Below, one piece after another: positions 812 through 50,067 of a stretch of 64,000 nt of DNA; within the stretch, counting starts at the first letter, position 1; each line of letters begins with the position of its first letter. The notes below the pieces were generated by a model. The model saw only the letters and a program-made list of their open reading frames with translations, did not search any database and was not told the DNA's origin. The stretch lies in NCBI RefSeq assembly GCF_006345805.1, contig NC_043017.1:25048001-25112000 (forward strand), written 5' to 3'. Made by a program: the position numbers and the translations under genes. Origin of the DNA: Octopus sinensis. Taxonomy: Eukaryota.

Positions 812-959
812 ACGAATAACAAAGGAACCAACACAGCACAAGATCTGGACTGCACGAAGACAAACGGCAGGCTGGACAATGAATTAGTAACCAAGCATGA
901 CATGATCAGCTACCAGTCTCCAGATGGTCGCATAAACAATCGTCTGCCTCCCATAAATG
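812..959 (+). CDS. Internal coding exon of an unidentified gene (TNNKGTNTAQDLDCTKTNGRLDNELVTKHDMISYQSPDGRINNRLPPIN), phase 0 to 1
   Basis: Long pyrimidine tract then AG at 810-811; donor G|GTGAGA at 960; 148 nt open frame; GC-richer non-repetitive island; phase matches the exon at 49859. Confidence 0.8.
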
Positions 960-1857
960 GTGAGATTTTGCCATTCATTTAAAATCAAGAAAACAAAGAT
1001 TTCATACATGCAGTCATAACACACACACATTCACACACACACTCACACACACACACAATGTGCTTGCTGCCCTATATGCTGAGCAGTACAGAAGGAGCTA
1101 AAAATGCAAAAAATATTGTGTTTGTGTGTGTGTGTGTGTGTGTGTATATATATATATATATATATATAATATATACACATTTATATATATATATATACAC
1201 ATTTATATATATATATATATACACACATTATATATATATATATATATATATACATACATACACACACTCTCAAACATGCACATATATAGATATACACACA
1301 CATACACGCACTCATACATGTACATATATACATGTGTGTGTGTATATATATGTACACAATACCTGGGACATGGATTTGGCACATGGAAACTGCAGGAAGC
1401 TTGTTGTGTGTGTGTGTGTATCCATGCAACATTTATGCCCATGAATGTTGATCTTTCACATTTATCACCATTTGAATGAAGCAGTGATGATGTTGACATT
1501 CCATGGTGTTAACATTATAGGTTGGGGGGGTTGCACTGCACCTTTAAAGATATTTTGAATAAAATGGGTGAGGGTTCATGGCAAGAGGAGCATCCATCCA
1601 TAAAACCCTGCCCCAATTAACTCGATATCCATGCCTATGTTAGCATGGCAAAATGCATGCTCAACAAAGAAGTATATATATATAGTATATTGGTATATGC
1701 AGAGAACAGCTTTTCTTTCAAACATTTATATATAAAGACAAATGATTGACTGAAGTTAAGCTTAAACACAGTGCCCATTTCATACAACAGACATGAATAT
1801 CTATCTATCTATCTATCTATCTATCTATCTATCTGTATATATAAACATATATGACTC

Positions 1858-2480
1858 TTTAGTCCAGCTTGGTTGTCCTGAAAGGGTCATCAAAATAATG
1901 TATCTCTTCCATGACATGAAGGCCTGGATCAGTGTGGGTGACAAACTTTCAGAACCAATGTCTGTTGGCAATGGTGTCAATGCATTTTAACAGCTAGCCT
2001 GTCCTTATTTGTTTACATGAATACTCAGAGAAGGATTTGGAGTGGTTTGTTCTACTGGACCTGGGTTGATAGAGTTTGAAGTGCATCACTTTTAAGCATA
2101 AAACAAAATGTGTGTGTACATTTGAATGCAGAGGATGTGTGAAGACTGGTAATAAATAAAGTAAGCATGCTCTACCAGTTGTGTAATATTAAGTGCATGA
2201 GCAATGTGGTACTAATGAGCTGAGAGAAAAACTAAATGTAAGGGGGATCAAACATTGTGGGGAAGAGAGAAGACTGTTGATATGTAATATGAATGGATGA
2301 TGATAGGCAAGAATGGAAGAACCAGATAGAAGGAAACTGTGCAAGAGGAAGACAAAGGAAGCCATGGGCTGAAGTGGTGAAAGTTGATGACAGGATGTCA
2401 ACCCTCGCAAAGGAGATTACAAAAGATTGCAGCAGAGATGTTGTTTTGGAGAAGATCCTGCAAGCATGGAAAAGCAGATG
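1858..2480 (+). pseudogene. RTE-clade LINE fragments (RT segment and C-terminus)
   Basis: QLGCPERVIKIMYLFHD...SEPMSVGNGV matches the RTE RT segment before KQG; ELREKLNVRGI..EERRL and EGNCARGRQRKPWAEVVK match the RTE C-terminus. Confidence 0.7.
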
Positions 2481-2986
2481 TAAAAAAAATTATGAGATTA
2501 TATATGCATTTATATGTACTTGTTGACTGATTTGTGTGTATGTATATTTATATCTATGTGTATATATATATATATGTATATATATATGTGTGTGTGTATA
2601 TATATATGTATATATATATATGTGTGTGTGTATATATATATGTATATTTATATGTGTGTATGTATATATATATATCTGTATGTATATGTGCGCATGTGTA
2701 TGTATATGTGTATATATGCATATATATATGTGTATATATCTATATATATATATGTACGTATATATATATATGTATATATATATCTGTATGTATATATATA
2801 TATATATATATAGTATATATATATATATCTGTATGTATATGTGTGCATGTGTATGTATATGTGTGTATATATGCATATATATATATGTGTATATATATAT
2901 ATATATGTACGTATATATATATATATGTACGTATATATATATATAATATATATATATATATATATATATATATATATAATATATAT

Positions 2987-4150
2987 GTTTGTGTGTGTGG
3001 AAGTGATGTAAAGAAAGACACACACACACACCTTAATGTCACTGGGTTCACATTTAGTCGGTAGGATAAATAAAACAAACTTCTATTCAGCCTGTCATGC
3101 AGTGTGACTTCAGTTGCCTTGCAATCATTGTTTAACTATATCAGCTTATGACTGATTTTTGCTTAGCATGCAACACCAGTAGATACTTGCTACTGATTAG
3201 GCTCAAAGAAGCAGAAATCTGGATTTAGCAATGTTTCTGGACAGGATGTCTGTCTACCATTACTGCTGCTATATATCTGTGTTTCTTCAACACAGGTTGC
3301 TTACTAATACTGCTTTCATCACTAATAACAAATGTGTGTCTATGTATGTATATGTGTGTGTGTATGCAGTATATATATATATTTGCACTCATATACTTAT
3401 ATGTGTATATATATATATATTTGCACTCATATACATATATATGTATATATATATATATATATATATCTATATAGGTGCACTCATATACATATATATGTGT
3501 ATGTATGATATATATATATATATATATATTACGTATATATATATATGTATGTATATATATATATATATATATATATATATATATATATATATATATATAT
3601 ATATATATATATATGTTTGTGTGTGTGGAAGTGATGTAAAGAAAGACACACACACACACCTTAATGTCACTGGGTTCACATTTAGTCGGTAGGATAAATA
3701 AAACAAACTTCTATTCAGCCTGTCATGCAGTGTGACTTCAGTTGCCTTGCAATCATTGTTAACTATATCAGCTTATGACTGATTTTTGCTTAGCATGCAA
3801 CACCAGTAGATACTTGCTACTGATTAGGCTCAAAGAAGCAGAAATCTGGATTTAGCAATGTTTCTGGACAGGATGTCTGTCTACCATTACTGCTGCTATA
3901 TATCTGTGTTTCTTCAACACAGGTTGCTTACTAATACTGCTTTCATCACTAATAACAAATGTGTGTCTATGTATGTATATGTGTGTGTGTATGCAGTATA
4001 TATATATATTTGCACTCATATACTTATATGTGTATATATATATATATTTGCACTCATATACATATATATGTATATATATATATATATATATATATCTATA
4101 TAGGTGCACTCATATACATATATATGTGTATGTATGTATATATATATATA
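2987..4150. repeat. Near-identical tandem duplication, period about 628 bp
   Basis: Unit starting gtttgtgtgtgtggaagtgatg at 2987 and 3615; differences only in homopolymer and microsatellite length. Confidence 0.9.
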
Positions 4151-48175: not shown

Positions 48176-49502
48176 TTTTATTTTAATTGCTTACAGTATC
48201 TTTCTCTCATTTGAATTCTTTTAAATAAAGTCGTAAGAGCTATTTTTTCTTACTTTTTTTCTATATTTTTTAATTATTTGAACCATCTACTGTTGTTGCT
48301 GTTGTTGTTATTTTGCATAATTTCAACTAATTCAATTTAAATCTTGTTCAAGTTACCTTGGTTTCATTTATTTTTGTGTCAAAATTTTTATTTAGCTTTT
48401 AAAGAAATGATGCCTTCATGAATGAATGAAACAACCATTTTATTTCCAGACTGGATTTGTGACAAGATAAGGACAAAACAAATAAATAAAAATCCAAAAT
48501 CCAAGGACAAAATTAATCCTTCCATGGCCACACTACTGATAAAACATTTTAGAGCGTGATTGTTACTGAAGTCATTGCCAGTGCCGCTGGACTGGCTCCT
48601 GTGCAGGTGGCACTTAAAAACACCATTTGAGCGTGGCCACTGCCAGTACCGCCTGACTGGCTGGCCCTTGTGCTGGTGGCACATAAAAGCACCCACTACA
48701 CTCACGGAGTGGTTGGCACTAGGAAAGGCATCCAGCTGTAGAAATCCTGCCAGATCAAGATTGGAGCCTGGTGCAGCCATCTGGTTTGCTGGTCCTCAGT
48801 CAAACCGTCCAACCCATACCGGCATGGAAAGCGGATGTTAAACGATGATGATGATGTATTTCAAAGGATTTTGGAAATAATCAGTGAATTTGTTGTGATT
48901 TTGTATAAAAATAACTTAATAAAGTTACTGAATCAGATCAAGGAGAGATCCTCTACTCAGTCAATCATCTTGCTTGAAATAGTAACCAAATCTTCCTAAA
49001 AATCACAAATCCCTTTATGGGGGGGGGGGATTATTATTAACTTGCCTTGAAACAGATTAGGGTTGGTGATAAGAAGGGTATCTAGCCATAGAAAATCTGC
49101 CTCAATAAACTCTGTCTGACACATGCAAGCACAGAAAAGTGGATGCTAAATGATGATGAACTTTCTCATTATTAATCTGGTATTTGAAACAAGTTAGCAT
49201 GAAATTTTGATGAGAGGTTTTAATTTATATCGCTTTGAAAACAGTTTGTACCATAGAACCAAGGTCAGTCTTGGGTAGGTTGGGTATCATAAGGGTTAAA
49301 TGTTTTTTTTTAAATTTCCATGGCACACCTAGATGCCCCCTGTGGTGCACTGTTTGTGAACCCTTGGTCTTGATTCTGAGTTAAAATCCTACTGATGTTA
49401 GTTATGAATTTTTTCATATTTTGAAGATTTTTTTTTTTGCTCCTTTTGTTAATGTTTCTAGTTGTTGCCCAGTTGCATGACACAATTCTAAAGTCCCTGT
49501 AA

Positions 49503-49723
49503 CCCTTTCGTTACCAACCTGGCTGAAACCGGCTCTGGCTCTGAGTACAAATGTCTTGTTTTCAAAAGTTTTGAATTAAAATCTTCCACCAAACCTTAGT
49601 CACAATTTATGTTTCTAACATCAGCTTAATGATAACTAAATTATTTTACTAAATTCTTTGTTATATTTAAAGTAATTGAAAGAAACACAGAGCATCTCAA
49701 AAATAAATACAGTAACAAAAGGG
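49503..49723 (-). mobile_element. TTAA-type MITE, family 2
   Basis: ccctttcgttacc ... gtaacaaaaggg-ttaa. Confidence 0.8.
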
Positions 49724-49858
49724 TTAATATTTTAGTATTGTTTATCATCTAAATGCTAAAGGGACTTACGATGCACCCTTTTAATTTTTGGGGGGTTTTT
49801 TTGCCTTCTTTTTTTTCATGTGCTTTTTAAGTCTAATTTCTTTTATTCTTATTTTCAG

Positions 49859-50067
49859 TTGACAAAGCTGACCCGATAAACACAGGATGTCACCAGCCAC
49901 GAACTTTGCCAGACGTTGTTTATACCGAAAGTGGTTCTCCTCCGATGGAAAAGCATGCCCAACATCATCCCATCTGCAGCAAATCTTGGCCAGAAGTGGA
50001 GGCCCGCAGGCTAATCCTGCACGACAATGCTGACAACAGTTGTGACACTGTAAACCAGAACATTTAA
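49859..50067 (+). CDS. Terminal coding exon (VDKADPINTGCHQPRTLPDVVYTESGSPPMEKHAQHHPICSKSWPEVEARRLILHDNADNSCDTVNQNI*)
   Basis: Branch-like CTAAT at 49833, acceptor ttattttcAG, phase-1 entry open to TAA 50065-50067, clearly GC-richer than flanks. Confidence 0.8.

Follow-up and report, generated by a model that had tools for sequence, protein, structure and literature searches.

The C-terminal tails of DHHC palmitoyltransferases are known to be varied by splicing in other invertebrates. According to PMC13104975, the fly gene app is predicted to encode four DHHC isoforms with different C-terminal tails, and one of them binds Dlish. In C. elegans, exon 10 of dhhc-4 is described in PMC13247117 as non-triplet, resistant to nonsense-mediated decay (NMD) and neuron-type-specific, and it gives a tail that is 52 aa shorter. 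The tail of the octopus gene reported here is of this known kind. Like App, the octopus protein has DHHC isoforms that vary in the tail, and octopus exon D (below), like dhhc-4 exon 10, is an optional exon of a DHHC gene that shortens the tail. The worm exon stops by a frameshift, whereas octopus D has an in-frame stop, and for D both NMD resistance and cell specificity are presumptive. The mollusc tail differs from those of the ZDHHC9/14/18-App-Erf2 group in that it is made of stacked small cassettes and has no solved-structure match past residue 353.

The window, that is, the whole stretch of 64,000 nucleotides of Octopus sinensis DNA that was analysed, contains two exons that bound the region of interest.

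812-959, forward strand: exon A, shared coding exon that supplies residues 388-436 in the 540-aa isoform, with phase-1 donor G/GTGAGA; exact match to database isoforms.
49859-50067, forward strand: exon E, last coding exon, encoding the long tail, 69 residues to the stop; 100% match to P0001.

A preliminary description of this DNA had placed a phase-1 donor after 959 and an acceptor at 49859, and both are borne out. Its assumption that the outer exons lie in one gene also holds. Judged by its sequence, this gene is a ZDHHC9/14/18-type (App/Erf2-like) palmitoyltransferase. The encoded protein carries the DHHC domain PF01529 in precomputed database annotation, with an intact Asp-His-His-Cys; it aligns with ZDHHC9, ZDHHC5, Erf2 and DHHC20, and its upstream exons were mapped in the genome. 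The top solved-structure match is human ZDHHC9 (E 1.6e-134, residues 54-353), and among the 8 solved sequences matched the bit scores (ZDHHC9 453, ZDHHC5 190, Erf2 117, DHHC20 92) make it the closest. Since the PDB match to ZDHHC9 stops at residue 353, all of the cassettes described below lie beyond the catalytic core. A Pfam search of outer exons A and E returned 0 families. The intron between these exons is 49 kb long and AT-rich. Exon E is present in 19 sequencing runs from 7 studies, none of them recorded as RNA or bearing a tissue label. The isoforms of one bivalve gene are named variously ZDHHC9-like and ZDHHC14-like in the databases.

The database isoforms indicate that the tail is alternatively spliced with four optional exons: three of 6, 51 and 48 nt, and one of 68 nt that contains a stop.

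4469-4474, forward strand: exon m, 6-nt micro-exon, phase 1-1; the sole AG-ATGGNT-GT match on the forward strand of the window.
20068-20118, forward strand: exon B, 51-nt cassette, phase 1-1; an AG..GT exon matching database isoforms.
30896-30943, forward strand: exon C, 48-nt cassette, phase 1-1; adds a Ser-Pro site.
43164-43231, forward strand: exon D, 68-nt stop exon whose 16 residues make up a short tail, with the stop codon at 43211-43213; 3' end inferred from the donor.

The 6-, 51- and 48-nt exons are all multiples of three that begin and end in phase 1, so any subset of them keeps the frame and none requires a partner. Exon m adds Asp-Gly, and the codon at its following junction encodes Cys if B or C comes next, Phe if E does and Trp if D does. 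Exon D swaps the 69-residue tail for 16 residues with their own in-frame stop; a strong donor, AAG/GTGAGT, lies 18 nt past that stop, and a second possible donor follows 43187. In a splice-score ranking of 3625 candidate segments, D, its inner-donor form and B take ranks 1-3, and a G at donor position +5 is found in 5/5 supported donors versus 1/7 donors of the segments that appear solely in the preliminary description. That description found C and missed the other three of the four database-isoform exons (m, B and D). Among 26 cephalopod-type tails, B occurs in 13; C in 10, including Argonauta P0014 and the cuttlefish-like P0021 and P0022; m in 8, including one cuttlefish-like Logan protein (P0003); and D in 4, every one of them with B and named O. 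sinensis.

Twelve O. sinensis-named isoforms, one isoform found only in O. vulgaris and a protein from Argonauta are accounted for in full by combinations of A, m, B, C, D and E, and every piece of these isoforms falls on an AG..GT exon of the window. All eight subsets of m, B and C are found among octopus-named proteins, with the proviso that these are pipeline-predicted, possibly from the same assembly, and may join junctions that never share one molecule; 15 of the 18 members of the octopus protein cluster are among the matches listed. Among the cuttlefish-like Logan proteins, m+B is found in P0003, B+C in P0021 and P0022, and none of these exons in P0002, P0018, P0019 and P0025. Exon B is identical in Octopus and Argonauta and differs by one residue in the cuttlefish-like proteins. 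Its core, K-x-x-x-W-(D/N)-M-T-x-x-Q-L, is retained in bivalves (10/14 residues identical to the Dreissena homologue), and in Mercenaria, Dreissena and Mya the homologue is present in some isoforms and absent from others. A strong amphipathic helix in B is not supported, the moment being a modest 0.25-0.43. The same three bivalves have isoforms with short or long tails. Mere intron read-through is rejected as the source of their short tails, which follow both A and B; a squid-like GEHFV tail does resemble read-through, and so would GEILPFI in the window. Nor was D retained as a homologue of the short-tail exon of bivalves: the two share a position, with no sequence likeness past the first two residues. 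A literature search found no paper on these exons, which are already in public annotation; the main text of a bioRxiv preprint (10.64898/2026.09.05.749416) has 0 mentions of zdhhc, and its supplements may list them.

For exon B, the AG-free zone is 127 nt long and a CTRAY branch point lies at -21; the values for exon C are 156 nt and -25, and both exons have UCUC-rich tracts (16 motifs each, top 1%). Exon m has a long AG-free zone alone (93 nt), without a UCUC tract or near branch point, and D has none of the three features. The acceptor layout of B and C is like that of fly eMIC exons, for which PMC8797185 describes a long AG-free zone, a UCUC tract and a near branch point. Unlike eMIC/Srrm234 micro-exons, m, B and C have no UGC in the 30 nt next to the acceptor, and B and C have strong donors and exceed 27 nt. 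Exon D likewise has no UGC within 30 nt; the nearest stand at -40 (B) and -31 (C), and m has none within 60 nt. The preliminary description had noted UGC and UGCAUG motifs, as seen in neural micro-exons, and called the cassette probably neural; both motifs are at background in the intron: TGC falls at -15..-4 in 41/205 pyrimidine-rich AGs, and TGCATG occurs 30 times on the sense and 32 times on the antisense strand, with 18% of sampled intron positions having one within the next 300 nt. Since TGCATG is not enriched, it was discarded as evidence of Rbfox control.

The central proposal of that description was a combinatorial tail cassette with obligatory joint inclusion of asymmetric exons that are separated by several kb. 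The tail is indeed combinatorially spliced and its 48-nt exon is real (exon C), but the asymmetric segments occur in 0/63 homologous proteins. Seven segments are particular to that description; two of them, of 42 and 32 nt, came without coordinates, and their best matches are given here. At the protein level, 0/63 homologues carry any of 15 diagnostic peptides, and each segment below is absent from all 63.

8793-8805, forward strand: 13-nt segment, likely pseudo-exon; weakest acceptor of the set, with another AG 3 nt upstream.
16193-16302, forward strand: 110-nt segment, likely pseudo-exon, inside an old interspersed repeat.
20502-20528, forward strand: 27-nt segment, likely pseudo-exon; rank 1370 of 3625.
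24697-24745, forward strand: 49-nt segment, unsupported but least excludable; single copy, donor without +5G.
28046-28087, forward strand: 42-nt segment (probable identity), likely pseudo-exon; donor TTG/GTTATT scores -5.1.
35247-35278, forward strand: 32-nt segment (probable identity), likely pseudo-exon; rank 18 of 3625, top of these seven.
38003-38010, forward strand: 8-nt segment, likely pseudo-exon; rank 248 of 3625, AG-free zone of 95 nt.

The AG/GT borders of the 13-, 110-, 27-, 49-, 48- and 8-nt segments were verified. The frame arithmetic is also right on the paths that were run: 13+110, 13+8, 49+8 and the complete path stay open, whereas 49+48 and the 49-nt segment by itself run into a stop. 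The frames of 13+32 and 49+32 were judged from their junction codons alone. The segments had been called unique, which is true of six of the seven (the regions of the 13-, 27-, 49- and 8-nt and the probable 42- and 32-nt segments give one match each). The 110-nt segment is the exception: it has at least 39 further copies, 74-81% identical to it, among the 40 candidates scored out of 284; Pfam searches in six frames around this repeat gave no family above cut-off. Of the six junctions named, 30943/49859 is used, and the other five lack support in any protein retrieved. Splice score alone is insufficient to reject the segments, because our matrix, a rough one built from approximate frequencies, ranks the real exons C 64th and m 293rd of 3625, below the 32-nt (18th) and 49-nt (53rd) segments. 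The long AG-free zones of the 49- and 8-nt segments resemble those of real small exons.

Frame coupling is not supported. At the score level met by the four best asymmetric segments of the preliminary description, the sense strand holds 60 segments forming 27 stop-free frame-restoring pairs and the antisense strand 43 segments forming 26; the parity was similar at 5 other thresholds, and no excess of pairs above the chance rate was found. In this 49-kb AT-rich intron, small AG..GT segments form dozens of frame-restoring pairs whichever strand is read, and frame arithmetic alone is therefore no evidence. The locus thus serves as a check on such a scan: the true exons here are mostly other than those that such arithmetic picks, and the real protein-extending cassettes are of triplet length, contrary to the forced co-inclusion of distant asymmetric exons. 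One could still suppose that the 13- or 49-nt segment is co-included with the 110-, 32- or 8-nt segment in a cell type too rare for annotation, since the splice dinucleotides and frames are correct and nearly all of the segments are single copy. We regard this as extremely improbable. Two non-triplet exons were never found together in the 63 homologues, though an exon of only 6 nt did not escape the same annotation; the isoforms listed, X1-X5 and X7-X13, which run from 540 to 469 aa, leave no slot for products of 571, 546, 520, 519, 514 or 512 aa, and the single 524-aa slot is m+B. The antisense pairs, the repeat and the background-level motifs weigh in the same direction.

It is very unlikely, if less so, that one or two segments act on their own as genuine minor exons, with the 49-nt segment giving a third short tail and no frame coupling. 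That segment, which alone would meet a stop as soon as C or E begins and leave a D-like short tail, has an AG-free zone of 143 nt (top 1% of 1207 YAG sites), a TGC at -16 and a single-copy sequence; moreover, Mya has two alternative short tails, and a non-triplet short-tail exon is known in dhhc-4. The same segment is nevertheless in no retrieved protein, its donor lacks +5G, and its acceptor has neither a UCUC tract nor a CTRAY branch point nearby. Another reading grants that the cassettes are real but takes them for mostly noisy splicing of a disordered tail that leaves the enzyme unaffected. The form that skips all of them is on 24/28 contigs (cuttlefish-like Logan proteins with tail), and D comes from one species. 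Exon B, however, is kept both in sequence and as an optional exon from cephalopods to three bivalves, and is near-invariant between Octopus, Argonauta and the cuttlefish-like proteins, whereas the long tail beside it is down to about 77-79%; we consider the noise reading quite improbable.

We thus hold it very probable that the window contains the tail end of a ZDHHC9/14/18-type gene whose isoforms use three frame-preserving exons and one stop exon, and that the asymmetric segments are likely unused pseudo-exons. Splicing of this gene may tune the cytosolic tail beyond the catalytic core, altering localisation, lifetime or partners rather than catalytic chemistry. Exon B would add a short motif that appears to be mollusc-wide; m followed by B or C would add a cysteine, a putative acylation site; and D would add a D-x-x-x-L-L sorting-type motif. 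Transcripts with D would escape NMD because the stop is only 18 nt from the last junction. Inclusion of the cassettes is probably tissue-restricted, and possibly neural. A bolder extension, which we think unlikely, is that m acts as a cysteine switch: the Cys arises only with B or C, 15.6 or 26.4 kb off, and would be an acylation site beside the mollusc-wide motif. Used along with the second member of an upstream pair of duplicated, mutually exclusive TM4 exons, m would then define a palmitoyltransferase specific to neurons, with a localisation and lipid/substrate preference of its own.

This gene combines a conserved, duplicated TM4 exon upstream with three optional tail elements: a 17-residue exon retained from bivalves to octopus, a 2-residue micro-exon that can contribute a cysteine, and a dileucine-bearing exon that gives the short tail. 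Together, these elements form a compact case for how a single gene of an invertebrate might serve functions that are divided among ZDHHC9, 14 and 18 in vertebrates.

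The exon at 49859 matches P0001 (palmitoyltransferase ZDHHC9 isoform X4, Octopus sinensis) at 100% over 68 residues. Further, mapping of the 540-aa isoform P0015 on the window and 200 kb of upstream genome sequence bears out the earlier assumption that the outer exons belong to one gene: both 812-959 (exon A, residues 388-436) and 49859-50067 (exon E, the last coding exon) were placed, with the start of the isoform ~156 kb upstream. Human ZDHHC9 is the top solved-structure match (E 1.6e-134), ahead of ZDHHC5, Erf2, and DHHC20. This match spans residues 54-353; therefore, the proposed array from exon A to exon E encodes the tail past the catalytic core.

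The octopus tails (15 of the 18 members of the protein cluster were analysed) and related ones resolve into four optional pieces between exons A and E.

Optional exons (forward strand, AG..GT), with counts among the 26 cephalopod-type proteins extending to the end of exon A
m: 4469-4474, 6 nt, phase 1-1, 8/26 tails
B: 20068-20118, 51 nt, phase 1-1, 13/26 tails
C: 30896-30943, 48 nt, phase 1-1, 10/26 tails
D: 43164-43231, stop at 43211-43213, 4/26 tails

The tail family thus tabulated comprises independent frame-preserving cassettes and one stop exon. Proteins named O. sinensis account for seven of the eight m/B/C subsets; the remaining one, B alone, comes from a protein named O. vulgaris. B is present in all four D forms, and D is known from only one species among the proteins retrieved. 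An inner strong donor in D (CTG/GTAAGA) would yield a 24-nt phase 1-1 exon (43164-43187) that supplies the dileucine motif discussed below without loss of the long tail. Separately, reading through the exon A donor produces a tail of 7 residues (960-982); in a squid-like Logan cluster (P0027, P0030, P0031), 19 contigs carry a similar read-through tail.

Because the annotated octopus isoforms are pipeline predictions, perhaps derived from this same assembly, support from other species matters. Two of the cuttlefish-like Logan proteins share an identical 229-residue core with P0026, a named cuttlefish protein. Tails of this set carry m+B in P0003, B+C in P0021 and P0022, and no cassette in P0002, P0018, P0019, and P0025 (the truncated, tailless P0020, P0023, and P0024 are omitted); exon A joins E directly on 24/28 contigs. 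The Argonauta protein P0014 is B+C. Each of the bivalves Mercenaria, Dreissena, and Mya has isoforms containing a B homologue and others lacking one, and the tail is either short or long; B and the Dreissena homologue match at 10/14 residues.

The preliminary description had proposed a different arrangement, in which candidate micro-exons of 13, 49, 110, 32, and 8 nt, interspersed with symmetric ones of 27, 42, and 48 nt, are paired so as to restore the reading frame. The coordinates and splice dinucleotides it gave, as well as the frame arithmetic, held on the paths that were run, and we infer that its 42- and 32-nt segments, given without positions, are 28046-28087 and 35247-35278. The 48-nt segment is C, found in isoforms; the other seven are absent from the retrieved proteins. 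As C is the sole supported exon of that proposal, 30943/49859 alone is supported among its six named junctions. Fifteen diagnostic peptides for the seven segments had no exact match in 63 proteins, and the cephalopod tails, read whole, leave no room for them. Twelve isoform numbers are listed for O. sinensis, with lengths decreasing from 540 to 469; the sole gap in the series, X6, lies between 523 and 521. The proposed paths predict 571, 546, 524, 520, 519, 514, and 512 aa, none of which has a slot except 524, which is m+B; the same annotation captured a 6-nt exon.

Nor do frame-restoring pairs exceed chance. At the score that the four best asymmetric segments of that proposal reach with a rough splice-site matrix, there are 27 stop-free pairs in sense (60 segments) versus 26 in antisense (43 segments), and five further thresholds gave no notable sense excess. 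With these near-equal counts and the 0/63 proteins, frame-coupled co-inclusion is not supported. For the 110-nt segment, called unique, scoring 40 of 284 candidates revealed 39 copies besides itself, at 74-81%; the other six regions have one match each. The UGCAUG and UGC cues are present, but TGCATG occurs 30 times in sense versus 32 in antisense, and TGC lies near 41/205 pyrimidine-rich AGs. We consider it very improbable that the frame-coupled array is a real feature.

By the same matrix, which is built from approximate frequencies and ranks imperfectly, the top three of 3625 segments are D, its inner-donor form (second, yet absent from every retrieved protein), and B; m ranks 293rd and C 64th, below the proposed 32- and 49-nt segments. 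A G at +5 is found in 5/5 supported donors versus 1/7 of the others. The 49- and 8-nt segments have AG-free zones of 143 and 95 nt, and the former has TGC at -16; these features speak against the present reading, and rare use of the proposed segments has a low but real probability.

Upstream of the window, two duplicated, mutually exclusive exons in tandem encode residues 270-305, which comprise TM4 and the TTxE motif.

Tandem TM4 exons (chromosome coordinates, forward strand)
~25035446-25035553 (L003): 12.5 kb upstream
~25040431-25040538 (L002): 7.5 kb upstream

Isoforms X1 and X2 differ at 8 positions across this exon, and both forms recur in cuttlefish-like and bivalve proteins. Positions 284-285 are Ile-Ile in one form versus mostly Val-Val in the other; positions 275-277 align near DHHC20 residues that we take to close the acyl cavity. 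Among cuttlefish-like contigs, 3/4 of those with tail cassettes and 0/24 of those lacking them have the second form (Fisher p 0.0012 when contigs are counted and 0.14 when distinct proteins are; contigs are non-independent and unphased). This tracking hints that TM4 choice and tail cassettes share regulation.

Several repeats were also noted in and beside the intron.

Repeats (forward-strand coordinates)
~3000-4170: near-identical blocks, ~627-nt spacing, 300 nt upstream of m (from duplicated frame translations)
8992-9431: perfect 212-nt inverted repeat, 16-nt gap
14189-14601: inverted-repeat element, 193 nt at 96%
17045-17741: inverted-repeat element, 268 nt at 79%
26216-26721: perfect 249-nt inverted repeat, 8-nt gap
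27173-27675: minisatellite, 20-nt unit, 25 copies, 76% matches
50425-51022: 288-nt unit x2.1 at 99%, shortly past the stop codon

The 249-nt arm has many 96-100% identical genome-wide copies, often in facing pairs (40 scored of 1871 candidates), and is a young terminal-inverted-repeat element. Once transcribed into pre-mRNA, the repeat would fold into long double-stranded RNA that might undergo A-to-I editing. The 212-nt repeat, with dozens of 100% identical copies, some in facing pairs 1-6 kb apart (40 scored of 447 candidates), is a very recent transposon family. The 288-nt repeat is either a recent duplication or an assembly artefact.

The octopus exons are already present in public annotation; no paper on them was found in the literature searched, which included the main text of one comparative preprint. 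An alternatively spliced DHHC tail likens this enzyme to fly App, with four predicted isoforms differing in their tails (PMC13104975), and to worm dhhc-4, whose short tail is described as neuron-type-specific and NMD-resistant (PMC13247117). The B and C acceptors resemble fly eMIC exons, as described in PMC8797185, in their long AG-free zone, UCUC tracts, and nearby branch point, but neither has a close UGC; hence, neural control is a possibility only.

How the junction codon after m reads is set by the partner exon: splicing to B or C yields Cys, to E Phe, and to D Trp. The Cys form is seen again in P0003, but this residue is possibly incidental, since junction codons always vary with the partner exon. 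Exon D contains D-x-x-x-L-L, an acidic dileucine pattern according to PMC7586229; the bivalve short tails lack it. A strong donor lies 18 nt after the D stop. Stops within roughly 50 nt of the last junction escape nonsense-mediated decay, and that of D would fall inside this zone, assuming that its predicted donor joins E. Among related enzymes, the ZDHHC14 tail is reported to bind PSD93 (PMC7685708), while PMC7586229 describes acylation of zDHHC6 tail cysteines that alters stability as well as activity, and endocytosis of zDHHC2 driven by a dileucine signal in its tail. By analogy, the octopus tail variants would adjust trafficking, stability, or partner binding. The finding is of modest interest, which lies in the conservation of exon B and in the cysteine and dileucine leads.
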